A stretch of 64,000 bases of DNA from Moniliella sp. 'wahieum' (lineage: Eukaryota), in contig RSEE01000029.1 in the NCBI GenBank assembly GCA_003971905.1, positions 62,001 through 126,000 of the forward strand. Reading direction: 5' to 3'. Under the pieces are notes generated by a model. It did no database searches and was not told where the DNA came from. It worked only from the letters and a program-made list of their open reading frames with translations. Shown here one piece after another: positions 6,918 to 63,447 of the stretch (positions are counted from its first letter, which is position 1; every line of letters begins with the position of its first letter). Made by a program: the position numbers and the translations under genes.

Positions 6918-9605
6918 CGAGCAAGGCTCTATTATATAACATCGCAGGTTACATGTTACAACAGTCAACACCGGTACAAAGGAAGCAGGAGAGAGCTAGG
7001 ACAATGTTGGTCGTTGAACGTTGGTGCGTGATGCACTATATCGGTTTGGTCGACATTTTCCCCACTTGTCATGAACGTCATGAAGCTTCAAGAGCTTGAA
7101 GCTTGATTATTACATTGTTGACTAGTGACTAGACATGTTTCATCGCAATAAAGCCCTACTTGTGTGCGAGCTGAGGGATTCTCCTTGTTCAGTTCGTTGA
7201 ACGTGGTGAAGCCGGTGAGGCCTGAGGCCTGAGGCCCTAAGGCCTTGCGAGGCTGCCGCATGCTCAATCAGATCTCAGATGTGTAGTTCTATAGAATTTG
7301 TCGGAACGGATCCCAATCGGTGGGTGTAGTAGCATCATACTCAACAGTGTAGAAAAGAAGTTTTATGTACCCACACATGTGTTGCAGCCTGCTGCGCGCG
7401 GCTCAAAAGAAGTTAATAACTGTAGTCAATAACTGAGTAACTAGTCACCACTACTAGAGGGATATACTAGTGACTGGCCAATACTCAGCATAGTATCCAA
7501 CTTAGCAGATCCAAGTTCCCCAGAGATCTAGTCATTATAAATACATGGCCACGGTGCCAAAAGGAGGTCTGCTGAGACTGCAGTGGCAAACGTCTTTAGG
7601 CCTTCTTATAGATCCCTCATACTTCCGAAATGGCATCATAACATGTGTCACGGGCGCGGCCGGGCTTGCCATATCCCGCCTTGCCCGTGACAACATGCAC
7701 AACCGGCGAGATTGAATAAAACAGTGCAAGAAGGGGGACGATACAGGCACTGCTTTTTCGACAAACGGTAAACGAACCAGTAAGCCATCCTGACTACGAT
7801 CTTTGTGGAAGTAGCCTAGATCTCTTGATCTCTCACCGGCAATTCCCAGTTTTCTGTCTAATACCGTCAGTCGACGGGACTAAGCCGGGCCCACGGCATA
7901 ATTATGGACCGGTATAGTTTTAGTTTCGGCATCCATCCGTGGAGCCATGGAGCCTGTGAAGCGTGCTCAACTGTAGCCTATCTGACATTCTGCTCTCCGC
8001 GCCCGTGTCGGTCATGTTATTGTTGTGACGTGGGAGTGACGCGAAGACTATCCGGCAAAACTTCCGCTTCGATGGCTCTCCCACAATCGTTTCAGGCCCC
8101 TTGCCCATTTCAGGCCCCTGGATGGTCCGTCTCCCCTCTCTTTTTCTCTGTTCAACGTTCAACGTTCAGACAGGGAAAAGACAGGTTTCTCAACGCCGGT
8201 AGGCTAGCTGTTAAACATACCGTCACAATTCCTCAGCTTTGGAAACGTTATATGCACTCCACAGAAAACAGAGAGTATCATGTACGGTATACGCTTTCCT
8301 ATTTATCTATGCATTAAGGAAACCAATGGCAGGAGCCGCAGAGGGACCTGACCTGCTTCCGACACTTGGATGTTTGGGTAGGCTAAGCTGATAACACAAA
8401 AGCCGGGTGTTAGTCGGATAGATGAAGAAGTGTGCCTCATATGTCCCCCCACCTCGTTTTGCAATGTTCTGTTGAATACCGTAGGTCTCACTGCTATCCC
8501 CGGAGCATTTACCCACTTGCTCGGTTGATAATATTGACGCGATTGACGGTTGAAGTTGAAAACGTTGAACGTTGACATGTTGACGGGTCCTCGATCACTT
8601 TGATCGACTGGATGACCCTGATCGTGTACGATCGACGCTCACCCGATCATTACTAGATCATTACTAGATGACTTCGATCAGTATAACATTTATCAATCAT
8701 CCTGAGTCAAGGCTAGTCAAAAAGGCTCTTCGGCCGGATTTTGGTTCTCAATCTCCCCATCAGAAAATTGCCAAACAACCCCACGGCCGTGGTGATGATC
8801 GACGATCGTCCCCTCTCTCAGATATGATCCTAGTAATGCTGCAATCCGTAACGGAGAAAAGCACTGGAGGATCACACAGGAGAAAAGGGAAAGGTAAACG
8901 GGGTCGGCTCGTGGGGGCGTTACTTGGCACTGTGCTTGATGCCATTGGGGATGGCGTAGGGGAGAGACAGCTCTCCCCCTTTTTGCTTTTGCCTTTCAGG
9001 GGTTATGTCTATATTGACTCTCTATCGAGACAGGGGAGGAACAACACATGTACTCGTTTGTCTGTAAACAGAAGATGTTACCTTCAACCGCCCCCCCCCA
9101 CACCCCCTTTCTTACAGCCGAATGGACCCACATGGGCTGTTGGGTGCTTTTTGGGACCGGCTGCTTTTCTCTTGATGCGAATTATTTTTCTTCTTTAGCG
9201 ACTCTGTCATCCTGGCATATTAGTAGTCTTACCACAGGGCCGGCGCATATACACACTGTTGCCAAGCTATAGCCTAAAGCTCGCCTTAAGTCATGAGCCT
9301 CACCTTCTGTGTGGTTCCGTCCAGATCCGCCGGCAGTGTTTATAGAGGCGTTTTTAATCGAAAACCGCCGGAGTGTGTCTCACACGCCGCATTGCGGGGC
9401 GCCCATCTGGCAGGCGGTGGTCTGTTTGGAGATGGACAGCAAATGAGACGGTGCCACCACCCTACTGTGGGAGAGGCCATGGAGCCAGCATAAACGAATG
9501 ATTTGACTTTCCCACGAGGCAATATAGAAGCATCAGAGTTAAATGGCGAGTGTCAAGTCGCAGCCGCCCCTGCCGTGGCTCCAACCCGAAATTCGTAGCT
9601 CCAAA

Positions 9606-9702
9606 GGCAATGTGCCCGAGCGGTTAAGGGGATTGATTAGAACTCCAAATTCTAACCATCAATTAGGCTCTGCCTGCACAGGTTCGAATCCTGTCATTGT
9701 CG
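9606..9702 (+). tRNA. tRNA-Ser(AGA), intron-containing
   Basis: GGCAATG/CATTGTC acceptor stem, ATTGA-TTAGAA-[intron]-ATCAAT anticodon arm, long variable arm, GGTTCGAATCC, followed by a T-run. Confidence 0.95.
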
Positions 9703-9820
9703 TTTTATCTGTTTTTTTAAAATTTTTTTAAAATATTTGTTTGGGGAAAGATATCCTGTCACCAACTTGTAACACCAGGTGGAGCAATTCGCGGAAAAGG
9801 GTAGAGCTGGTCCAAGTGGC

Positions 9821-10062
9821 GATGAGACCTGGAGTCCTGATGGTTCTCGAGGGTGATGCAATCGCACTGGTGGTGGTGGTGGTCTAAGCCAACCAGCAAC
9901 GCCTACAGAGGAACAACAAGCAGCGTGTCGCCACCACACAGGGGCTAAGCTGCGGAACAGCCAAAACAAAACAAGACGGAGAGAAAACAATGGAATTCCC
10001 AGGCTTGAGGAGAAACTGAAGGGACATTGGCCAAAGCACGGGCCACCCGATGGCTCAACAAG
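9821..10062 (+). repeat. Diverged dispersed repeat, copy 1 (copy 2 at 13132-13386); probable TE fragment
   Basis: gatgagacctggagtc...aatcgcactg...ggtctaagccaaccagcaac...aaagcacgggccacccgatggctca aligns with 13132-13386. Confidence 0.85.
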
Positions 10063-10204
10063 TGGTCCAGCTCCTATCTGCCTGAAGGGAGGGGGGGTCT
10101 AGGGTTAGGGTTAACTATGTCTCTCATCGCGGGGATGAATCGAACTGGCTGTTGATGCTCACTGAGCCGAGGCTCCAGGTATTCCGCGGTAATTCCGAAC
10201 CCCT

Positions 10205-12880: not shown

Positions 12881-13131
12881 GTGGTCTGAAGAGTAAACGA
12901 CTCCAGGGGGCGGACCAGGGGGCGGACCAGGAGGCGGACATGATGATGGAGAGGACCGAGGGGAAAACCTGGCGAAGACGTGGAGAGTGGACCATCATGA
13001 GGGCCAGAGGGTGATATGTACTCCTTTGGAGCTCCGCGGACGTTCCCGGGGCCTCATTTTGCCGCATCGCACACGGCTAGTATATACTCCACAGGAGCGT
13101 ACATGTGCCGGCCCTCGGATGGGTGGACTTT

Positions 13132-13386
13132 TGATGAAACCTGGAGTCTGGATGGTCCTCGAGGGTGATACAATCGCACTGATGGTGGTGGTGGTGATGG
13201 TGGTCTAAGTCAACCAGCAACCCCTACAGAGGAGCATCAAGCTTCAGACAGCGAGTCGCCACCAGGGGCAAAACTGCGGACCAAGGACAACCAGGAGGGA
13301 GGAAACAAAACGGAACTCCTAGGCCGGCTTGAGGAGGACCTGAAGGGACGTTGGCAAAAGCACGGGCCACCCGGTGGCTCAGCAGG
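13132..13386 (+). repeat. Diverged dispersed repeat, copy 2, inside the TIR element
   Basis: Aligns with 9821-10062. Confidence 0.85.
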
Positions 13387-13863
13387 ACTGTTGGGACGTA
13401 ATAAATGGTACGTTTAGAGCTCTTTGAGGCGCCAGGAGCTCTCGGAGCTCGGTGGCGTGTGGGTATGCTGCGGAGGTTGCCAGGGGCTGTTCCCACACGC
13501 ACAGCGCAGGGCTAATATGCTGAGCTGTGGGGGGTCCGTGCGTCGGCGTTACTGGTCTGTGCACCTTCCCACCAGAACCACACTGCTTTTGCTCTTGTTG
13601 CATCAGTCCTCCTCTTACCGCCCCTTTCACAGTTGAATGATATATATACCCCCCCCCCCCTCCCCCCCTCCACACCGGTCTCCTCTTCCCCCTAACAACC
13701 GCCTTCCCGACATGCCTATCACTATATATTTCCACACTTTCCTGCAGACCAACCGAAGACCAAAACTGGGGTAAGGTGCTAACCAAAGATCTGTCGGCAT
13801 CTCAACAACTGATGCCTGCTGTCCTGTTGGCGACCAACCAATCGTCCCAGTACTGTCTTTGCT

Positions 13864-14689: not shown

Positions 14690-15037
14690 ACACGGAACGG
14701 GCACGGAAGAGGTACGGGAAGAGGTACGGAAGAGGTACGGAAGAGGTACGGAACGGGTACGGAAGTGGTACGGAAGAGGTACGGAAGAGGTACGGAAGAG
14801 GTACGGAAGAGGTACGGAAGTGGTACGGAACGGGCACGGAAGTGGTACGGAAGAGGTACGGAAGAGGTACGGAAGTGGTACGGAACGGGCACGGAAGTGG
14901 TACGAAGAGGTACGGAAGAGGTACGGAAGAGGTACGGAAGAGGTACGGAAGTGGTACGGAACGGGCACGGAAGTGGTACGGAAGAGGTACGGAAGAGGTA
15001 CGGAAGTGGTACGGAAGAAGTACGGAACGGGCACGGT
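14690..15037. repeat. Right subterminal 11-bp minisatellite (GGTACGGAAGA with GGTACGGAAGT and GGCACGGAACG-type variants)
   Basis: About 30 tandem 11-mers adjoining the right TIR. Confidence 0.95.
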
Positions 15038-15837: not shown

Positions 15838-16666
15838 ACTTTTTGCGCGGGGGCTGTCAGAGGCGGAGGAACTGTTGCGAAAGCAACACCGTTGGTCTTC
15901 TTCCCGTGTCCTCACGTTTTGGCCGAAAGTCTTCATTGCCGCCCTTCATCGATCATCTGGATCTGCAGATGATTCTAAACCGTTCCGAGACCCTAAGCTG
16001 ATGTAAGTACGCTCGCGCCCATGGGGCATTGGCAAGCCATTCTCGACGGGTTGACCGGCCTCAGTCTCGGTTCACGGAACTTAAGTAGGTCAGGGTGTTC
16101 CTGCATTCACAGAAAAGGAAACCAGTATCGCCCTTTCCAGGACGAATACGTCCCATCAATAAAGTATGCGCCTGCGGATGCAAAACACCAGCGTGTTGGT
16201 ACATTTGAGCCGGCGGACTGAGAGAGACCACCCGACGCGCAGATGCTGACCGACATACTAGAGACATTTCTGAAGATAACACGGACGCGGAGCCTTCGTC
16301 TCGAAAGGAGACGAATATTTAGTGAGCAAATCCAAGAAGCATGGATACAAGCTCGACGCTTCGCCGCTGCTCACACTCTGCACTGCCCAACTCCCAACTG
16401 GGGTCGGCCCCTGTGTTGCAAAAGCCAAAAAGTTATTGCCGCTGCCGCAACTCGCTCTGCCCCCCGTCCCAGTCTGCTCTCTACCCCAGGCGTAACCCAA
16501 TAACCCAATACAGCAGAAGCAACTTCTCCTTACTCAGGGCTCCCCCGTGTGTTGCGAGTTTCCCTCATGTACTACGTTTCGGTTGGCACAACAACCATAG
16601 TCTCTCCTTTGTGCACGAATGTATACACGCTAATAAAAAAGCGGGTAAACCCGATGAATAAAAAGA

Positions 16667-16764
16667 CGACAATGACAGGATTCGAACCTGTGCAGGCAGA
16701 GCCTAATTGATGGTTAGAATATGGAAGTTCTAATCAATCCCCTTAACCGCTCGGGCACATTGCC
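16667..16764 (-). tRNA. tRNA-Ser(AGA), intron-containing, second copy
   Basis: Exons identical to 9606-9702 in reverse orientation; intron cttccatattctaacc versus ctccaaattctaacc. Confidence 0.95.
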
Positions 16765-17849
16765 TTGTGATCGTGCTCGAATAAGGAAGCGACCCATCCT
16801 TCGGCGGCATGCCACCCTGAATCTAGCAAGGTGGTGAAGAGGTGCAGTCTTCCAGAGTGGCAATGAGGTTTGATGGGAAGAGCCGGGAGGCAAAGAATGA
16901 TGAATTGGAGGGTGCGCACAGCAGCCCTCCCCGTGTTACGTACCTCGTCGGATTTGAGAGATGGTTACATTCGAGCTAACTAAGGCGCTTCCTGCTCTAT
17001 ACCCACTGCGTCTTTCAGCCGCGCTACTGCTACTTAAGCTGGCGGCACTGGTCCTCCTATATGCAGCCTACACCTGTAGCCGCCTCTCTGCTACAGGTTG
17101 AAAGACCCCTCCTTGTCCCTCACCCCGTTCGGACGCACCAATCAGCCCAAGCACGCTGAACTACCGCGAGTCGGCCTTTATAGGACCTCCAAGAAATTTT
17201 GTATCCCCAAAAACCTTCCCCCGACGGGCCCCTGGCGGCGCCAGCCCGTGACAGTGGGGGTTCACTTTGGGTGGTATTACTAGAGCGAGACCCAGGTGAG
17301 TGGAGTTCTTTTTGCGCCTTTTGGGCGCTGGGTCTACCCCAACAAGGGGCACGAAGAATAATCGGTGTGCATGAGGCCTGAGGGGAACGAGAAGTAAGGG
17401 CGAAGAATTGGGTTTTCATGTGAGGTGTATGCTTCAATTGGCTTGAGAGAGAAGATGGAGACTCATTTGATTCAATGAAAACTGAGCTGACCCACTAAGG
17501 ATTGCCTGGTGAAAAGGTATCACGACAGATTGTGGCGATGCGCGATCATACGGCTCATTCCGAGCTCTGTTATTCTCAGTTCGATTCTGGGGGCAGTCAC
17601 TTTTTGTTTTGCTTGGTTTGTTTGGGCTATATCCGATCTGAGAGCTTGCATGTCGCGAGGGAGAAGAGGCGAGGTTGCGTACAGGTGCATGCAGCAATGG
17701 ACGACATACCATACAGTAGAAGACCAGGCATGGGTGCCGTAGACTAATCGGTACCCGCGCTAACCCCAGATGGGCTACCGTTCCATCGCCCATCGCTGTT
17801 GGGGCCGGATTTGTGCAGTGCACGTGCTATTATATCAGCACTGGGGTGA

Positions 17850-19750: not shown

Positions 19751-20416
19751 ATGGACACACTCCACGGCGCTTCTATGCTACCAGACGGAGAGAAAGATGC
19801 TTGAGCATGACGGGAAAGAATTATGATGATGTGTCACCTTGAAGATGCTTCCTCGCCACACATGTCTACAAGTGATGCTCTTCGTATCCACGTACGCTAC
19901 ATGCGGTGTGGGCTCGAATGCGGGCACCAAAGGGTCCTGATTGCTGGCGACTTTTACTGATGTCCTATTAATTGGGTGGCACGAAGCAGCAGAGCGCACG
20001 ACGGATGCGTAGATGGTTAGGCGCAGCGCCCTTTCTGTCCCCGCCTTAGGCTCTGGACAAGACATGGATGCAAACAATGCAGGGTTTAACGTGGGAAACT
20101 GGCCCATAGGAAAGAGACAAGCACAATAGGGAATGATGAAAGGTGACTGAGTGGAACAACGTATTTCCTGCTCGCGCTTGCGCAATACCACTAGCTGAGA
20201 CCATATGTTGTTTGCGAGTCAGACGACGGGATGGGACGTACGGTAGTGGGGGTTACTCAACTTCGTTGGAGGTTATCTTGCTTGACTGAAACTGGTTCTT
20301 GTTACTGTCCACATTTGCACCTGAGAGAGAAAGGGCGTTTGGGGAACTGTGTGCATGTCAGTGCCAGAATCATAATTCCTGCATAAGGAATTACCAATAG
20401 CACCTCCTACCAATTG

Positions 20417-20505
20417 GGGTTCGTGGTGTGTAGTGGTATCATGCCTCTTTAGGGTGCTTGACTCGCTCGTAGAGGTGGTCCTCGGTTCGATCCCGGGCGG
20501 ACCCC
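20417..20505 (+). tRNA. tRNA-Pro(AGG), intron-containing
   Basis: GGGTTCG/CGGACCC acceptor stem, CCTCT-TTAGGG-[intron]-TAGAGG anticodon arm, GGTTCGATCCC, T-run terminator. Confidence 0.88.
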
Positions 20506-20906
20506 TTTTTCAACTACTTTTTGCTTCCAGGAGCACACGCCATTGCCACAAGTCTGGCCGACTGCTTCACCTGGCTCTCTCGGCGTCAGGAGATGTATTT
20601 ATGGTAGGCTGGGGCGTTACTAGGTACTAGCTACTTGCTACTGTATGGGCACGACAATAAAGGTGCATGTGAGGCGCCAGATGCATAGGAGGGAGGGGGC
20701 TTAGATGAGCGGTGTCAAACAAAGGAGGGCAGGATGGGAAGAGGGGAGCGGAGCGGAGGGGGGACAACCATCGCCGCCCACGGGAGCATCGCGACTTTTT
20801 CTACGCGATGGCAGCAACTCTGGATCGAAGCAGAGCAGACGGCGCGGACGGTGGGAGGCGAGGGTGCGTGCGCACACCGGCGCTTTTGTGGGACGAGCGA
20901 GCAGGC

Positions 20907-22982: not shown

Positions 22983-24338
22983 CGGGAGGAGGGGGAGGGA
23001 GGGGAGGTGGTGGGGGAGGAGGCAGCAGCGGCGTGCTCTTTGCTCTTTGCTCTTTGCTCTTAGCCCAGAAGCTTCTTCGCCCGCCGCGTCGCACAAAAAA
23101 AATCCGGTTGCCACGCCCGCCGGCGTTGCACCGATCCCTCTGCGCAGCCCAGGAAGAAAGCCATTCGGCCGTGTTCCGCATCCGCCCCATCGAGCACTTA
23201 CGTAACACCCCAGGCACAGGCGCAGTGTGCGGCGCGTGGGCGGATGGTGATGCCGCCATTGATTGCGGCCCGGCGGCAGACACGCCTCGCGCCGCAGCGC
23301 CACAGCAGTGTCATATATCATACGTCACATGTCACACCACGCCGCCCACCGCCGTCGACGCGCCACGCGCCTGCTTTAATTCTTCCCTCGACCTGTGGGC
23401 CAGACTCAATATCCAGTCCAGTTGCACGCGACGCCCCTCGCCTATCCCAGACCGGGTGGTGGGCCTGCCATGGGAATTGGATACTGCACGGGTGGCCATT
23501 CGGGTGAGTCATCTGCGATTGTGGCGTGCCGCAGCAGACACACCGTGACGGTCCGCTCCGTCATCGCCATCGGCCATCGACCATCGACCATCCCGCATCG
23601 GCTTGCTATTGGTTCGAGTAGCGTCCTTCTGGTCGCGTGCTGACACGAGTGCTCCGGCCTGTCTCGCTTCGGCGCCTTCCTTGGTGCTCCCATGCTCGCT
23701 TCTCGGGCCAGCACCATCCTTTGGACCCATCACCTGAACATATTGGCCACACGCCAAGGTCTTGCTGTCTTCTTGGTAAATAGCCCTCGCAGCGAGGGAC
23801 TCGCCATATATTGGCCACAGGGATTCTTGCGCGTGAGGAGACGCGGCACAAGTGCAGTGTAGATCGGGGCAAAGAGGGGAAGAAAGGGAAGAGGCAGAGT
23901 CGATTATTTCAAAGGTAACTGAACGTTCGGCCCTGGCCCCGCCTTGAGACGAACAGTGGGCGTCCCTCATTTGGACTGCATAATTATTGTGCTATACAGA
24001 GTGCGGATTGGGAGCACTCGGTCCGATCCGGGGGATCATAGGGAGAACAGCCTTCCGCCAGGGTGTGAAGACGAATTGAGTGATCAGCCGCAAGTCAAGT
24101 CGCTGTGCCTGGTATAGTAGCTGGGGATTTGGTGCGTTCATGTCATCACATTTCACATTGGCACAAAAAGCAGAGATGCGAGGGTGGTCCCGGTACAGCG
24201 AGGATACGTGAGCACATATATAAAGATCCAAAAGAGCGAGAAAAGCAACATCCGTGGTAGTGATGGTTGGAGAATATGCACAGAATGGGAAGGTTTTGCC
24301 ACGTGGCCACAAGATGATTGCAAGGAGATGAAGGATCC

Positions 24339-26101
24339 CTAGTTTCCGTCCAAGAAGTTCTTGATCCGAGTCCCGATCGAGATTTTCTCCCCCTTGAGAA
24401 GCATGTCCTCGGCATCCCACCGTGCCGTATCCTCCTCGATCGCAGCCAGGCATGAGTGTAGATCCATCTCCGACGCTTTCACCATCTTGGTACGCCACAG
24501 CAGTTTGAATCCCACGTAGCCCACAGCGCAATACGCAATGGGTAGGTAGTTGCACACGAACGTCCCTGAGTCCCAATGGCCCGGACGGAAAACAGTCCAG
24601 CCACTGAACAAAGCTACGCAGAATACCACGCCCAAGGTCCAGTACGCCATTGGTTTGATCAACCGTGGTGGTAGGGTAACGCAGAGGTGGGAATGTTTTG
24701 GGCGGCCATACCAGCGCGGAAGCGTAAGTAGGTGATGGTGATAAAGAACCAGGTCATAAGACCGCCAAGGGAGGACAGACTGGTGAGGTACCCAAACACC
24801 TTGGCTGAACCTTTGCTAACGGACAAGTAAGAGATGCTGCTAAAGAGCCAGACGGCAACAACGGCCACAATGGGAATCCCGTTGGACCACGTGTAGAGGA
24901 ACACGCGAGGTGCGTGACCTCGCTGCGCCAAGGCAATCAGCGACCGAGATCCCGAATAGACGCAGGTAAACCCAGCGCTGCATGCACTGGTGATCACACC
25001 GGCATTGACGATGCTGGGGAGAACTTTGATCCCTGCCGCTTTGATGGCGATCACGTAGGGGCTGGACGCTGCCGTGCCGTCCTGGCCCAGGGCAGGGTTG
25101 TTGGGACTGACAATGATCCCGATCGCAATGACGCCGAGAATGTAGAGCAAGACAATCCGGATCCACACCGTTTTGAGGCAAACGATCAAAACGCGACGTG
25201 GGTTGCGACACTCGGTGCAGGCCAAGCACAGTTGCTCCACACCGATCATACTGAATGTGGCTTGGATCGTGCAGGCAAAGAAACCCAAGAACCGGCCGGT
25301 CGTTCCAGGGATCCCAAGGTACTGTTGGAACGGACCATAGTCGCTGTGGCGCCACCAGTGGAAACCGATCGAGTGACCCGTAGGCCCGCCGCCAGCTGAA
25401 ATGACGATACTGCAAATGATCAAACCGGTCATGAGGATCACCTTGAGCGAGGTGAAGTACATCTCGCCATAGCCATAGAAGCTAGCCGAGATGACATTGA
25501 GAAGCAAGGAAACCACTTGCCCGACCGCAATCCATACCGCCGGGTTGATCTTGTCCGGACCCCACCAATAGCTCCACAGTGTAGCTTGCGCTGAAAGTTC
25601 CGACGCAGCTATAAGGATGGTGGAGATAATGTAGTTCCACCCATGGTTGCGCTCAGAGCCGGGTCGACGAAGCGGCCGGCAAGACGGATATGGCCGCCGT
25701 TTACGGGCAGGTAGGCGCACATGGACGATACCATAAACACGATCGAAACCACCACCGAGGCCATCAAGCAGTAGGCCATGAGCAGACCCAGCGGACCCCG
25801 TTCTGGTACGAAGATGCAATGCCAATAAAGATGCCCGTTCCTGTTGCAAGTCCAGTCCCAGGCCTTGTCAGCACCACGCGTCACGTCACGAAGCACCGCA
25901 TTCTCCATCACCTCTCCCTTGGCCTCGGCCTGGTCACATACCAATGACACCCCCAATACTAACGGCGATCAGACCGCCTGGCTTGATCCCACGCTTCAAG
26001 CCCAGTCCATCATAGTCGTGCGCCCAAGGAGAGTCGGAATCGGTAACAGAGTGCGCGTAGTCGGTGTCTTCTACGATCACCTTTTTCTCCAGGTCCGACA
26101 T
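24339..26101 (-). CDS. Amino-acid permease (APC/YAT family)
   Basis: LKRGIKPGGLIAVSIGGVIG, GTGTGIFIG, GPLGLLMAY, AGRFVDPAL, GWNY, GRFLGF, ECRNPRR, SPYVIAIK, LPSIVNA, SRSLIALA; frameshifts. Confidence 0.93.
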
Positions 26102-26573
26102 GTGGTTGTGGAGAGCGACTGAGGGTGCGAGAACGAAAACCGTGGCGAGTGGCGGGGAATGCTGGGTATACGGAATACCCAAAGAGCAGGGCAGTGGCAC
26201 TTAAAGCTAAAGTATTCATCTCAACTCACCGAAATGATTGATGATGGACGAGGTCTCGAGACTCCACACACTGTGGGTCTCCCAGGCGATAAGGGCGCTT
26301 TTCTCGCCCCACACCCCTGAGATAAAGTCGGAGTATAATCTGCTCTGACAGACCTGGTGCTGCTGACCTGCACCCTTCAAGCTTCAGGCCTCACAATCTC
26401 CTCAAGCTTCAAGCTTCACATACTACCCCGGGGCTTGTAGCGCTTATCGATTATCGACATTGCACGCAAAAGACCCGTGTTCAGGGCCGACGGGCTAACC
26501 TTGAAGCGATTGAAGCTCCGTCTCAAAACGTGAGATTGGAGCTGATGGCGCTGATGGAGCTCTTGAAACGCTT

Positions 26574-28367
26574 GATATAACGTACGTTGCCCGCGGGCAA
26601 CTTAGGACGACCATGCCCCCAGAGTGGCGTAGTGCCTACTATCTAGGAACGGAACAGGCGGCGGAGCCTTTTTGCACATTTTCTGGGCGCAGCATCACGC
26701 ATAAGCGCTAAGCTCAGTGCTCACACCTGCTACGTGTCCATTCAACATTCAGCCATTCAGGTCGAACGTGCGTGCGCAAGCTTGTTAGCCTTCGCACGAA
26801 CTGATTAATTGATCGGCCTTGGACCTTGGCCTTACCAGATCTTACCGGTTAATCGTGCTAGACGTTAACTACCGTTAAACGTTAAACGTTAACCCCTGTT
26901 AGTAGGCACTAGATATTGATGATCGATGACCCGATGACCGGTTCCCCATTCCCGGTAACCGGTAACCCTTCACTAGCTTCACGCTCAGGTGAGCGCCAGC
27001 CCTGACCTTAGGCCTTAGGCCTCATTAATGAGATACTAAAACATGGGCTTGGCAGGGACCTATCCTTGTCGTTGAACGTTGAACACCGGTGACCACTCGA
27101 TCATGATCAAGATTATCGCAGGAGGCAGAGACTGGTGCTGTGGGGTTCCCCAGGGTTTTACCCGCGCCCCGCCCATATTGCGCAAAGATTAATGATTGCC
27201 CGCGGTCTGCTCTCTGTGACATGTTATGAGAGACTCAGCGCTCAGCCCCTCAGCCCCTCAGCGCTCACTGCGCTCACTACTAGTCACTTCGTTTGCAAGT
27301 GGCACGTGGCGCTCGTCTGGGCAGCTGTGTGCCCTGTTGTGCCCCCCTCCCCCGCGCTGCTCATTCCATCTCCGCCCTCTCTGTATACCCGAACGTCACG
27401 CATCACGCTCTCCGTGTGCAGGCCGAAGGAGCCTTGCACCGTTGTTCAGCTGTGAGTACTGTGAGTGCTCAGACTGAGCACTGGTACTAAGCCAACTTGT
27501 TAAATCCCTGAGGAATATGCCATCAGGTGCATCAGGGAATACCAGGGAATACCTAAGCCTGAGGCCTGTGCCTGAGGCCATGATGGATGTCGATGCACGA
27601 TGACGCGTGACGATGAGGTACCTGTGTACCGTGCACGCCCTGCGTGGGACAGCTGCACTAGGCACTGCTGTTGGGCTGCTGTGGCAAGTGGAGCAGATAT
27701 CGTTCACGGAGGGTTTTGTGGCTTAGTCCCGGCCAATCAGGCGTAGATTGTCCCTGGATTCCATAAGAGATGTGTCAGACATGTCAGATCCACAGGTCCC
27801 AGATCTCAGATCTCCGATTTCGCATCTTATCTTATCGATTAAGTATTACGTATTGATCCCCTGGAAAGTCGCGCTCACGCTTGAATCTTGAACACAGCCT
27901 CATTCTGGCAGCACCCGACCGTGCCGCGGACGGTCGAGGGTTGCGCGTCCTGCCGTCGCGCATCGCATTATATACCCACTCCTCCTGCCCTACTGAGGCC
28001 TTGGCGTGAAGGGTTACCTGTTCCCGGGAAGCGGTAATCAGTATCTAGCAGCGAGTAGCTAACCGGTAGCTTGCAATGGATCTAGTAAGGCCAAGGCTCA
28101 AGCTTCAAGCTTCAAGCTTCAAGACCGATCAATTAAACAGTCTGTGCTAAGGCTATAATCATTGGGCACGTACGTGCAGCCTGAATGTTAGATGGGCAAG
28201 TAGCAGATGTGGCATGCATAATGTGACATGTGATCCCTGCGCTTATGCGTGATGCTGCGCCCAGAAAAGGTGCAAGGTTCCAGCGCCTGTTTCCCTACAT
28301 AGTAGCCACTACGCCCCTCTGGGGGCATCGTCGTCCCAAGTTGCCCGCGGCGTACGTACGTTTTATC
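26574..28367. repeat. Diverged long inverted repeat: arms about 26574-27024 and 27991-28367, spacer about 1 kb
   Basis: For example ccgcgggcaacttaggacgaccatgcccccagagtggcgtagtg and ttttctgggcgcagcatcacgcataagcgc match the reverse complement of 28239-28350. Confidence 0.9.
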
Positions 28368-28743
28368 GTTTTAATCGTTAACCGTGCTGTGAACGTATTG
28401 AATGTCATTTGGGTTACGATGTAAGACCGCGAGTCTACTTCTAAAAAGGACGTGCGGGGGCCATGTCAAAATCTCACCGCCAAGCGCCACCAACATATCG
28501 TTCCTAATTGTCGGCTCATTACGCGTTACGCTCATTTCTCTTGCCCTGTTGGTGGCAGTTCGCGTTGATTGGCATCTTGGCCTGGACGCCATCTGCATAC
28601 TATAGCGCCGTGCGAAACACCAAACATAGCGCTGCCAACAGAGAGCCTATTGCAAAAGATGGATCCGCTTCTCATCTCTCGAGCTGTATGGCCTCTTGAC
28701 TCCTTCTCCCAACACACCCAAGCCCTCTTTGAGCGGAGCAACA

Positions 28744-30983
28744 ATGACTACGACCGCCCCTGCACTGACAATTGCAACGGGCGATGAAGAGGAGAAGTTG
28801 GCCCATCTGCATAACGCCTGTGCCGATTGGAACCGGACTTCTCGCTCTGGTTCCGTGAAGAAAGTACTGCCGTTGCACACCACTGCACATGTCGGAACCC
28901 CATTTTGTCTCCCGCTCAGCACAGCAGTGCAGCTCGTTACGGGCGCAACGGTCGCCCGTCAAATTGAGTGGGATGACGGCGCAGAACATACTCTGACCGA
29001 GGTGGGTGAACACGTGTACAGGGGCCACTTGTTACCGGTAGCGGATGTCAAGGACGATCCAACTTCAGAAGAAGCTTCGTCCAATAACGCAAAGGAGGCG
29101 CCGGTGCCAGTGGAAGTTACGGTATCCGCTACAACCAAGAGCGAGCCGGAAGGTGTGACGCCCAAGGCACGCTGCAAGTCGTTAGGTATCAAGGCCGTCC
29201 GACTGACCGGCACCGGCCTTCTCGCTACGGCGCAGCGCAAACGTACTGCATACCTTCTGAGCGTGGACGACGACCAGCTATTGTACGCCTTTCGCCTAAC
29301 CTGCGGGCTGGACACGTGCGGTGCTCCGTCTATGGAGGGATGGGACGCAATGGAGTGCCTCCTACGTGGCCACAGCACGGGACATTACTTGTCCGCGTAC
29401 GCTTTGGCGTACGCAGCTACAGGCACCGATGCGTTGAAGCGCAAGGTACTGTACCTTGTACATGGCCTAGATGAGTGCCAAACCGCTTCCGCGGGGCAAG
29501 AAGGATATGTCGGCGCATTCCCTGAGGCTCAATTTGATGCGCTACAAGACCTAACGCCCTTTCCGGCGGTTTGGGCTCCATGGTACACCCTGCACAAGGT
29601 CCTAGCTGGCCTGCTGGACGCGTACCAGCACACGCACCTCCCTTTGGCATTGAGCGTTGCACGGCGCTTAGGCAAGTGGGCTGTGCATCGGCTGGAGAAA
29701 ACGTCGGTCGAGCAGCGCCAACGAATGTGGTCGCTGTATGCTTCGGGCGAGACGGGCGGGATGAACGAGTCTCTCGCCATATTGTACCGGTACACCCAGG
29801 CACCCGAGTTCCTACGCGCCGCACAGTGGTTCGATACCGACTTGTTCTTGGTCCCATTGCAACAAGGTGTAGATGCACTGATGGGGCTGCACGCAAACAC
29901 GCACATCCCTCAGGTCGTTGGTGTCTTGGCCGTGTACAGGCAAGCAGGGATCGCTACCTACTTGGAAAGTGCGCGTCGGTTCTGGGATATCGCCACCAAG
30001 CATCATTCGTACTCCATTGGGGGGTGGGGCAGTGGGAGATGTTTTATCCGCCGGACGTGATCGCGTCGCGTCGGTGGGTCTGCAGACAGCCGAGACGTGT
30101 GCGACGTACAACTTGCTCAAGCTGGCTGCGCAGCTGTCCGAACTAGACCCAGACCCACAGTTTGGCCATTATTACGAGAAGGCGACGATCAACCATGCCC
30201 TCGCAACAATGGACGTCGGTCCTGGCAGCGGCTGCGACGCGGACTGTGGGAAGGAAGTGGTACCGGGGGGGGATGGAGGTGCAGGGCAGCGATAAGAGTA
30301 CGTATTTCTTCCCTACGGCAGCAGGGTCGACCAAGACGTTCGAAACGAGCAAGGATAATACCTGTTGCCATGGAACAGGGTTGGAGGTACACTTCCGTTG
30401 GGCCGAGGGTGCATTCTACCAAGACACGACGTCACTGTATATTATGCAGTACGCTGCCTGTAATGTCCGAACGAGTGAGATGGAGTTGAATGTGGCTACG
30501 AACGACTTTGCGCCTGACAAAGTCACCATCCAGATTGCTCAACTGCTGGACAAGGTACAGGTCCGACTGCGCATTCCGGAATGGGCACAGTCGGTCCGTG
30601 TGCGAGTCAATGGTCAAATCTGCTCCGTCAACCAAGCGGTGCAAGAGGTGGTGGTGTGTCGTGGCGAGAATGGCATCAAAGAGAACTGGGAGGGGACAAT
30701 GATTGAGCTAGAATGGGGGATTGGCATGGACCTCCTTCGTGCCCCGGATGACCCATCTGTTGCTTCGATTACGTGGGGACCATATGTGCTCGCAGCCTTG
30801 ACATCGTCCAAGGTGATCCCCAATGTTGTTTGCCCGGAGCCCGTGGAGGACCAGTTTGAACGCGTGGCCCGGACAGAATCCTATCCGTTGGCCTGGTCGC
30901 ATCCTGAAACGGGGCTGGTGTTTGTCCCCGTTGCTTGGATTACCGCGGAACCGTACAGCGTCTACGTAAAGGTGGGTATCTGA
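28744..30983 (+). CDS. GH127/GH146-like beta-L-arabinofuranosidase with N-terminal Ig-like segment; no evident introns; two assembly frameshifts
   Basis: LRGHSTGHYLSA, WAPWYTLHKVLAGLLDAY, GETGGMNE, HANTHIPQVVG, YSIGG, AETCATYNLLKL, YYEKATINH, TCCHGTGLE. Confidence 0.92.
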
Positions 30984-43183: not shown

Positions 43184-44250
43184 CTCCTTAACCCCCCTTC
43201 CCCCAGGCTCCGTAACGCCCTCCTCCCTTTCTCGCCCCTTTCGCCACCCGCCCCTCCCCTGCCTCTACGTAGAGATGCTGATTCGTACACGCGCTGGAGC
43301 TCTTGCAAGTTACCAACCGCCTTGTCCCCATCCATCTCCACCCCTAGCTCCATCCCTAGCTCCGTCCCTTTTCATTCCTAGCTCCATTCCTAGCTCCATC
43401 CCCATCTGCGTCTCGGTCTCGGTCTCGGCCCCCATTTGATGTCTCGTTCCCGGGCGCGATGTAGTAGCTAGTAGAGTCCCTCCACCGTTCCCCGAATCTT
43501 CCCTAAACCCACGACCGGTCCCTGCGGGTCCGCCGCGCTGTCATGGCTCACGTGTTGGGCTGTGGCGGTGTGGTGGTGGTGGTGGAAGGCGCTGGATACA
43601 CTGGACGGGAGATGGACCAAGTCGAGAGAATTGGAGGGGGGCTCCCGCCATGCGCTCATCAACTGTGCGCACTTTTTGGCCCGCCCCCTGCCCGAGCCCG
43701 AGGCCGCGACGGTGTATACAGTGTAGTACTACATCGATACCAATGCGCAAGGATGTACTTGCGCTAATGCAATGGCAGGAACGGGTTAGATCGGTGGCTG
43801 GTGTGGATGCAAGCGTCTCGGGTAGGGTCCCGTGTGACATGTGACGCGTGAATATTGAATGCGAGCCAAGATGTCGCTGACGTTGATCGTGGGCCGTGGC
43901 CGTGGATCCAGCCCCCTACTGCATCTCGGGTTGCTCTTGGCGAGATGGATTGGGGAGTACAATACGTTGTGCGGGGTCTTTGTGTGTTGTGTTGTGTGGG
44001 ATGGAGGTGAGGCCAGAGGGAGGAGTGGGAGGGGTGTGGTCCACACGTCACATGTCACACTGTCGCATGTCGTTCCCCGTTCTTGGATCTTCCATCTCCT
44101 ACCTGGGTCTCGGACCTCCTGCATGCTACCTACCTTCAGGCCTACGTCGTCCGGTCTGCCGTGGCGTGTGCGTGCTGGACGAACACGATGGTGCAGGCTC
44201 AATCCAAGACCCTACACATTCCGAGTTTCAAGTAGCAACTGTGTTTTCCA

Positions 44251-44300
44251 GTTCCAAGGTCCAAGGTCCAAGGTCCAAGGTCCAAGGTCCAAGGTCCAAG
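44251..44300. repeat. Heptamer array (GGTCCAA)6-7
   Basis: tccaaggtccaaggtccaagg... read directly. Confidence 0.95.
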
Positions 44301-62969: not shown

Positions 62970-63061
62970 GGGGTTTGCTTTTATTTTGTTTTTGTTTTTT
63001 TTTAAAAAATTGAAAGTGTTGCCACCTGTCATGAGCAACTTTGGCAGAAGTAATAAAAAGA

Positions 63062-63145
63062 CGTTCCATGTTGGGCTCGAACCAACGACCTCCCGATGGC
63101 CGTGAATTAACAGTCGGACGCTCTAGCCAACTGAGCTAATAGAAC
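63062..63145 (-). tRNA. tRNA-Asn(GTT), intron-containing
   Basis: Reverse complement GTTCTATTAGCTCAGTTGGCTAGAGCGTCCGACTGTTA-[intron]-ATCGGGAGGTCGTTGGTTCGAGCCCAACATGGAACG. Confidence 0.93.
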
Positions 63146-63447
63146 GGATGTGTCTGTTGTCCATGAACTCATTTCCACTTCTTTGGGGTCACCTGACCTG
63201 CCGGTCTGACCAGCCTCCCTCCTCTCTTCGTTTGCCTGTGATGGTTTCTTCTGAGCTACCTCCTTTACATTAACAGAGCTGGCCATTTTCTCCTGGTTTA
63301 CTTGGTGTGCACGTAACAACTGCACCTGTCATTATACTGGGAGTGGGGTATACACGGCATGCAGCGTGCCGCACTTCAAGCTTCATCGATCATCCTTCAT
63401 CGATCATCCGAAGCACCCCTCTCGTTTTGTGGATGCATGGGTGACCA

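Follow-up and report, generated by a model that had tools for sequence, protein, structure and literature searches.

The 7-nt units described here were found in a 64,000-nt stretch of DNA from the fungus Moniliella sp. 'wahieum' (contig RSEE01000029.1, positions 62,001 to 126,000; this whole stretch is referred to below as the window), and several of them lie in the arms of a diverged inverted repeat at 26574-28367. The units are built around the trinucleotide T-N-A (N being any nucleotide), and they are best read as ongoing, non-functional, local insertions templated by their own flanks across the non-coding DNA. A model of quasi-palindrome correction has reportedly been put forward by Ripley. 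The closest published concept that we found is short-range template switching, for which the four-point model, in the available part of its description, has one local event write a reverse-complement copy of the adjacent bases (PMC5453318). With template switching and quasi-palindrome correction the T-N-A units have in common perfect small palindromes and apparent clusters of mutations without a mobile element. Unlike the published model, however, they have a fixed geometry (two inverted plus five directly repeated nucleotides, a net gain of 7 nt), they are tied to T-N-A and they are very dense (108 perfect 12-mers in 64 kb), while the available part of the model contains no such dependence on a motif. 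In the full-text literature, covered without subscription journals and without the genome paper of the organism, no description of a T-N-A-anchored 5+2 insertion was found.

Among mobile elements, TNA or TWA is the target-site duplication of the IS5 group and of PIF/Harbinger, the excision footprint of Tc1/mariner is TA-CA.TG-TA, Transib/RAG is associated with 5-bp duplications and with hairpin opening of the Artemis type, and P nucleotides occur at hAT, Transib and V(D)J junctions. Heptanucleotide tandem repeats are known from cyanobacteria as STRR. Heptamer repeats of TAACTGA lie between genes in Beggiatoaceae, according to the available part of that report (PMC4679880). The units of the window share with PIF/Harbinger and IS5 the direct repetition of one three-base motif, but nothing in those systems predicts a flank-templated 4-bp palindrome. 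With the bacterial heptamers they share an intergenic location and a 7-nt unit, often with TAA or TGA; in the bacterial cases, however, one fixed unit is repeated many times, whereas here the unit is free beyond T-N-A and the palindrome, and most loci hold fewer than two copies.

Direct repetition of T-N-A around a 4-bp palindrome

Exact tandem arrays of period 7 with at least two copies numbered 59 in the window against 3.85 in Markov shuffles, while those of period 8 numbered only 9. Thirty-one of the 59 period-7 units were perfect odd palindromes, and T-N-A formed the center in 28 of these. Written as a 10-mer, in which T-N-A is followed by a 4-bp palindrome and by the same T-N-A again, the pattern was counted 97 times, whereas 50 dinucleotide shuffles gave 2.6 +/- 1.7. 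With complementary N, which makes the 10-mer palindromic throughout, it was counted 9 times (2.5 expected); simple snap-back copying through T-N-A, which predicts complementary N, was rejected on this comparison (9 against 97 with the same N). Other trinucleotides directly repeated around a 4-bp palindrome stayed near background (83 against 62). When identical T-N-As were separated by fillers of 0 to 9 nt, only length 4 was strongly enriched (155 against 39), and 97 of these 155 fillers were palindromic where 2.0 were expected. A spacing of 6 was mildly enriched (75 against 38), and the 9-nt variant with a 6-bp palindromic filler was rare (3 against 0.5).

The enriched trinucleotides were TCA (39), TGA (35), TTA (19) and TAA (4), and not TAG (2) or CTA (0). 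All 16 palindromic 4-mers were found as fillers. Like the Tc1/mariner footprint, the units have a fixed motif repeated at either end, namely T-N-A with identical N (97 against 2.6), but in place of constant element ends there are 16 fillers here, and in 53 of the 62 isolated cases one half of the filler is the same as the flank next to it. Fixed transposon termini as the source of the filler are ruled out by these 16 flank-dependent sequences.

The 97 10-mers formed 77 chains, of which 62 had one filler, 11 had two, three had three and one had four. Three chains, at 26377, 43835 and 63376, were of mixed filler, the one at 43835 reading TGA-CATG-TGA-CGCG-TGA-ATAT-TGA. Since the fillers in such chains differ from each other, the units were not copied from their neighbors.

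Two further observations concern composition and spacing. On the plus strand, TTA-type units (19) exceeded TAA-type units (4), whereas TCA and TGA units were balanced. Tandem repeats of period 8 to 11 carrying TGA or TCA were also present, namely GTACGTTGA (3.4 copies, 1064-1094), TGGAGCTGA (2.8 copies, 26537-26561), CTCAGCCC (2.8 copies, 27241-27278) and GATCATTACTA (2.3 copies, 8645-8669); these repeats and the T-N-A spacing of 6 may reflect the same process in a compound form or with a longer stem.

A 5-nt direct repeat with two inverted nucleotides

The palindromic heptamer is secondary to a more basic structure, TNAab-b'a'-TNAab, in which two direct copies of a 5-nt sequence beginning with T-N-A enclose two nucleotides that reverse-complement the pair of bases before them. 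In the 62 isolated 10-mers, half of the filler matched the flank on one side in 47 cases, on both sides in 6 and on neither in 7, a match being defined as a period-7 match running at least 2 bases beyond the 10-mer, for which about 7-8 of 62 are expected by chance as estimated from 1/16 per side, not from shuffles. The possibility that a palindromic heptamer already in place had been duplicated as a symmetric 7-bp target was rejected, only 6 of the 62 being two-sided. Of 28 period-7 runs of 12 nt with a T-N-A-type unit, 23 fell into one of two mirror phases.

As a 12-mer on both strands, TNAab-b'a'-TNAab was found 108 times where 0.2-0.25 were expected. Copies with one defect (109 against 8.7) and with two defects (259 against 108) were also in excess, so that the units form a decay series and their hidden load is large. 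The leading T was present in 108 of the 120 sites that satisfied the rest of the pattern, and the bracket TnA (108) had no counterpart in CnG (2), GnC (4) or AnT (4). When T-N-A was left free, a 5-nt repeat around 2 nt that reverse-complement its last two occurred 158 times (7.65 expected). Structures of the 5+2+5 kind without T-N-A do exist at a low level. Beyond the rule itself, no flank consensus was detected among the isolated 10-mers, and the two orientations were used 25 and 29 times without strand or regional bias. The 6-bp palindrome A-NNNN-T was enriched as well (337 against 173). Because the two centers of symmetry lie 3.5 nt apart, the period is 7, and the palindromic heptamer, the A-NNNN-T palindrome and the 7-nt period all follow from the single 5+2+5 structure. 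We place high confidence in the descriptive rule.

Oriented to the 5+2+5 structure, the central base was C in 21 cases, G in 17, T in 7 and A in 2, an imbalance due in part to a few arrays.

Fixed 5-nt direct repeats resembling a target-site duplication, with two palindromic nucleotides (158 against 7.65), are also what hAT, Transib and V(D)J junctions have in common with these units. Unlike symmetric excision, however, the P-like nucleotides here stand only at the end without T-N-A, and the mirror classes are near background. An hAT-type footprint with a one-nucleotide offset was rejected, as the predicted flanks did not fit in one example checked by eye. More generally, the palindrome differs from transposon footprints in being templated by the flank, and no element was found among the scanned open reading frames (ORFs) of the window.

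Ordinary heptanucleotide microsatellites, produced by chance 7-bp duplications and slippage with quasi-palindromic units favored in hairpin-forming arrays, would agree with period 7 being the enriched one, with the existence of multi-copy arrays, some of them non-palindromic (TCCAAGG, 6.9 copies at 44253, and TGCTCTT, 4 copies at 23034), and with the spread of the run-length excess over 10-14 nt, as expected from decaying older duplications. A microsatellite, however, consists of at least two full head-to-tail copies and needs neither motif nor symmetry, whereas 62 of the 77 chains had a single filler, the modal length was 12 nt in two fixed phases (23/28; 47/62), T-N-A was specific and the filler was a 4-bp palindrome. 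Slippage predicts neither the need for T-N-A nor a palindromic filler of exactly 4 nt, mixed-filler chains cannot come from copying, and the CTTGAAG units added in the right arm of the inverted repeat (see below) are unlike the adjacent CTTGAGC. As the origin of the units slippage is contradicted by these features, and as a general account it is improbable, though it may change the length of arrays that already exist. The two arrays outside the T-N-A rule, at 44253-44300 (TCCAAGG) and 23034-23061 (TGCTCTT), are probably true slippage microsatellites, and period 7 is then not exclusive to the templated process.

Comparison of the arms of the inverted repeat

The left arm (26574-27024) and the right arm (27994-28367), as delimited by repeat search, blastn and exact anchors, enclose a spacer of about 970 nt (27025-27993). 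An earlier note on this DNA had proposed a diverged inverted repeat, and its existence is confirmed by blastn within the window (26574-26828 against 28367-28113, 74% over 269 nt, E 1.5e-44) and by six collinear inverted pairs, I1 to I6, which run inward from 26574/28367 in the repeat search and of which the outer arms (26574-26647 and 28294-28367) are 88% identical. By chained exact anchors, the homology spans 26579/28362 to 27024/27994, the innermost anchor being 27017-27024 against 28001-27994. The core of the left arm (26574-26860) aligns well, while a weaker tail to 27024 is broken by left-specific blocks of 46, 22 and 39 nt. Every string and arm-specific unit quoted in that note was recovered at its position.

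At 26811-26836 the left arm reads gatcggc-CTTGGAC-cttggccttacc, while the reverse complement of the right arm reads gatcggt-(CTTGAAG)x3-CTTGAGC-cttggccttact, with 21 extra bases. This difference is clean, amounting to precisely three units. On the plus strand the array lies at 28098-28123 and consists of three copies of TCA-AGCT followed by TCA-AG, that is, (CTTGAAG)x3 plus CTTGA on the other strand, and it is 21 nt longer than the left arm. Divided around T-N-A, the right arm is gatcggt-CT-TGA-(AG-CT-TGA)x3-GC-cttggcc and the left arm gatcggc-CT-TGG-AC-cttggcc. We take TNAab, the structure with one period removed, as the state before the event. In the insert AG-CT-TGA, the first two bases reverse-complement the left flank CT and the rest repeats CT-TGA; removal of three periods leaves CT-TGA-GC, in which the pre-event 5-mer and its flank are kept at the end of the array. 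The view that the added units are not simple copies of the adjoining one is thus borne out: CTTGAAG is palindromic and the retained CTTGAGC is not, as the flank-templated rule explains, and under this rule CTTGAGC represents the state before insertion. The left-arm counterpart CTTGGAC (26818-26824) has TGG instead of T-N-A and carries no insertion.

Further units are confined to one arm (all given on the plus strand). In the left arm these are TAAGC-GC-TAAGC at 26702-26713, a 5+2+5 structure with TAA-GCGC-TAA at 26702; the array GT-TAA-ACGT-TAA-ACGT-TAA of GTTAAAC units at 26873-26892, within the left-specific block of 46 nt; GA-TGA-TCGA-TGA at 26918-26929 (TGA-TCGA-TGA at 26920); and CC-TTA-GGCC-TTA-GGCC-T at 27006-27022 (TTA-GGCC-TTA at 27008). 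The left arm also has CCGG-TAA-CCGG-TAA-CC at 26952-26967, where the right arm reads GAACA-GG-TAACC with equal length. In the right arm, TG-TGA-CATG-TGA is located at 28222-28233 (TGA-CATG-TGA at 28224); on the other strand this is TCACA-TG-TCACA, and its left homologue is TCA-GTGC-TCACA.

The last pair points to a single ancestral site, TCA. In the right arm the sequence is TCA-CATG-TCA-CA, and its filler is the one that the right flank CA predicts; in the left arm it is GC-TCA-GTGC-TCA, whose filler is one substitution away from GCGC, which the left flank GC predicts. The fillers CATG and GTGC suggest two independent events of equal length at this site, and equal-length differences between the arms appear best read in this way and not as presence or absence of a unit. 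Some arm differences would therefore involve no change in length.

None of the eight arm loci of the 10-mer type (six left, two right) was perfect in both arms, the nearest to a common locus being TTA-CCGG-TTA against CTA-CCGG-TTA, and the units are perfect although the arms have otherwise diverged by 12-29%. The arm specificity claimed in the earlier note therefore stands. Its expectation that gap lengths would be multiples of 7 was only weakly borne out: the difference in length between exact anchors was 0 eight times and otherwise 3, 3, 14, 8, 21, 9, 46, 22 and 39 nt, so that two of nine non-zero values (14 and 21) are multiples of 7 where about 1.3 are expected by chance, and there is no overall 7-nt bias. 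The differences were taken between anchors as the global MAFFT alignment was unreliable at 26709-26760 and past 26860. The large ones are composite blocks, built mostly of T-N-A units. As to the proposal that the units are insertions later than the duplication, arm specificity, the perfection of the units and the gain of three units in 21 nt speak for it, the missing gap bias does not, and on balance the units in the arms very probably arose after the duplication.

A second pair of diverged repeats, 13120-13400 and 9805-10075 (76% identical), carries the same kind of difference. TCA-AGCT-TCA lies in a 7-nt insertion at 13237-13246 (plus strand), where the paralogue at about 9916-9925 reads ACA-AG. 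In both clean cases the uninserted paralogue has no T-N-A at the site (2/2, too few to weigh). A pattern consistent between two independent paralogue pairs, the decay series of mutated units and the depletion of units in coding frames are features of evolution and hence disfavor an artefact of assembly, sequencing or polishing; such an origin is hardly credible.

Selected functional elements were also considered, either three-frame stops that insulate intergenic transcripts or protein-binding half-sites of the TGA/TCA type. A stop-bearing heptamer repeated three times does stop all frames, and the units are confined to non-coding DNA, with 94 of the 97 perfect 10-mers outside open frames of at least 200 codons, although such frames make up 43% of the window. 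In Beggiatoaceae, too, the intergenic TAACTGA heptamers have been proposed to be regulatory, as far as the available part of the source goes (PMC4679880). But selection on stops is ruled out by the unenriched TAG and CTA (2 and 0), and the two strands of T-N-A are used equally. Most loci hold fewer than two copies, the units are unconserved between the paralogous arms (0/8), and a filler that is arbitrary yet palindromic and flank-templated is predicted by selection neither on stops nor on half-sites. A functional role is accordingly very improbable. For annotators, the stop-carrying palindromic heptamer repeats of this genome are most likely mutational debris and not regulatory elements.

One larger difference between the arms was also seen. 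The right arm at 28206-28239, compared with the left at 26709-26726, has 14 extra nucleotides (cat-TATGCATGC-cacat), which give two direct copies of a 5-nt sequence, at a distance of 14 nt, around ATGCAT/GCATGC palindromes and may represent a larger event of related kind.

Possible mechanisms of insertion

At a site xyTNAab, an event would add 7 nt and give either TNAab-b'a'-TNAab or the mirror product xyTNA-y'x'-xyTNA. Five nucleotides beginning or ending in T-N-A would be copied directly, and the two between them would be the reverse complement of the adjoining two. Each insertion would regenerate its own target, so that repeated events could build homogeneous arrays such as (CTTGAAG)n. We suppose, with a probability of about 0.45, that the insertions arise by a short-range template switch of the fold-back type during DNA synthesis. 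The last five nucleotides of the nascent 3' end (xyTNA) would fray and bend back on themselves, the three bases TNA making the turn; the folded end would be extended by two nucleotides on its own x-y; and the mini-hairpin would then be looped out and synthesis restarted on the original template at x, yielding xyTNA-y'x'-xyTNA with the same N. The observed structure has the corresponding parts, as b'a' reverse-complements the adjacent ab and is followed by a direct re-copy of TNAab. The one-sidedness, the identity of N, the freedom of x-y, the growth of arrays and the rare 9-nt variant would all follow from the fold-back geometry. The resulting units would be neutral mutational debris, purged from coding DNA and decaying by substitution.

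Several points weigh against this mechanism. The need for T-N-A is unexplained by fold-back, for which C-N-G, G-N-C and A-N-T should serve equally if a base pair closing the loop were sufficient (2, 4 and 4 against 108), and such specificity points to a protein. To our knowledge, no polymerase reaction has been established in which a 3' end with little or no pairing is extended within a turn of three bases, and the fixed extension by two nucleotides is without firm explanation. In 7 of the 62 isolated units and in the middle units of mixed chains, the filler matches neither flank. The direction of change, insertion rather than deletion, is suggested by the internal logic of the sequences only, and all statistics come from one 64-kb window.

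The specificity for T-N-A is more readily met by the footprints of break repair, in which a protein that recognizes T-N-A (a nuclease, transposase-like or other) would cut one strand where T-N-A ends and the other 5 nt away, followed by fill-in, and the hairpin at the far end would be opened 2 nt off its tip. Fill-in would duplicate five nucleotides, much like a target-site duplication, and off-tip opening would add two palindromic P nucleotides, similar to those at V(D)J, hAT or Transib excision sites. The strict need for T-N-A with any N resembles recognition by a protein, the 5-nt direct repeat with exactly two palindromic nucleotides fits a fixed stagger and hairpin opening at +2, and 5+2+5 structures without T-N-A occur at a low level. 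Yet the palindromic nucleotides always come from the end without T-N-A, and the mirror product TNAab-N'A-TNAab is not enriched; such one-sided P nucleotides are unlike the work of a two-fold symmetric transposase, which would give both products, so that an asymmetric enzyme would be needed. The filler is no constant transposon terminus (16 different flank-templated 4-mers), and no transposase was found among the scanned ORFs of the window. PIF/Harbinger excision is reported, in the available part of the source, to be mostly precise, as described for mPing (PMC4561436). We consider break repair unlikely, although it is a more serious candidate than slippage.

It is possible, but also unlikely, that a lineage-specific enzyme recognizing T-N-A writes a stereotyped 7-nt scar, with a 5-nt duplication and two hairpin-derived nucleotides, at hundreds of sites per 64 kb. 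An asymmetric nuclease or a domesticated transposase could do this, as could a polymerase of replication or repair endowed with unusual fold-back activity. The scars would then be a previously undescribed sequence-specific mutational signature that steadily builds intergenic DNA, and they could serve as a molecular clock of events.

As a case of templated insertion, the units would lend themselves to direct testing. When perfect and slightly decayed ones are taken together, there are hundreds of them in the roughly 36 kb of non-coding DNA. Should the rule extend to the whole genome, it would provide a clean, countable mutational signature, defined to the single nucleotide, dependent on a three-base motif and accompanied by a visible series of decayed copies, and would account for much of the odd texture of intergenic DNA in this fungus.

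The inverted repeat and neighboring features

The inverted repeat occupies an intergenic spacer of about 2.8 kb, from which the genes for an amino-acid permease (24659-25849, minus strand; PF00324, E 1.2e-64) and a GH127 beta-L-arabinofuranosidase-like protein (28696-30983, plus strand, in the two frames 28696-30060 and 30162-30983) diverge. With its two inverted arms of about 400 nt around a spacer of about 1 kb, the repeat is like a foldback or long-terminal-inverted-repeat DNA transposon. It differs, however, in that the window holds no other copy of it and that no transposase domain was detected in the spacer ORFs. Blastn of the arms against the whole window returned only the reciprocal arm, and the outer boundary is fuzzy (GATA[T/A]AACGTACGT and beyond), with no clear direct repeat visible. 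As no target-site duplication and no second copy were found, we do not call it a transposon; we treat it as an old inverted duplication of non-coding DNA with no evident function, useful as two paralogous sequences that can be compared. Its spacer holds five loci of the 10-mer type (27073, 27235, 27258, 27601 and 27832), and the spacer ORFs of 83-106 amino acids had no Pfam match. Over 26200-28700, Rfam at E<=1 gave one sub-threshold small nucleolar RNA match and nothing above noise, and a scan for bacterial-type promoters and terminators, a type unsuited to a eukaryote, was at or below the level of shuffles.

The proteins of the window include EFTUD2, a DEAD-box helicase, ISU/NifU and a BRCT protein, and split genes are present; together with the intron-containing tRNA genes described below, these mark the DNA as eukaryotic. 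In a protein search, the best named relatives of the EFTUD2 fragment (the GTPase of the U5 small nuclear ribonucleoprotein) were from Ustilaginomycotina, among them Thecaphora, Violaceomyces, Sporisorium and Malassezia, at only 57-60% identity, which we read as the mark of a smut-like basidiomycete on a deep branch. The best named matches of the GH127 protein were bacterial (Bifidobacterium and others, about 44-46% identity) in a search of 5.8 billion proteins, which found no close relative. A search of metagenome contigs with the same protein retained 80 loci of about 36-46% identity, and from these, which were not inspected further, no usable relative or orthologous locus was obtained. The gene may have been acquired horizontally.

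At the gathering threshold, Rfam over the whole window detected transfer RNAs (tRNAs) only. Intron-containing tRNA genes are indicated by Rfam tRNA matches of 97-104 nt without an ARAGORN call. Two such tRNA-like genes with introns, at 9604-9706 and 16663-16766, are oppositely oriented and share 97% identity over 104 nt (46 bits in Rfam). ARAGORN called a 'tRNA-Stop' with anticodon tta at 20416-20506 and a tRNA with the four-base anticodon gtta at 63060-63146. These are likely intron-containing tRNAs misread by the bacterial-mode scan, and Rfam gave tRNA support to the second only (63062-63145).

An 11-nt tandem array (ACGGAAGAGGT, about 30 copies with 88% matches) lies at 14692-15027 within two overlapping open frames, and a related stretch at 15051-15127 matches 10235-10158.

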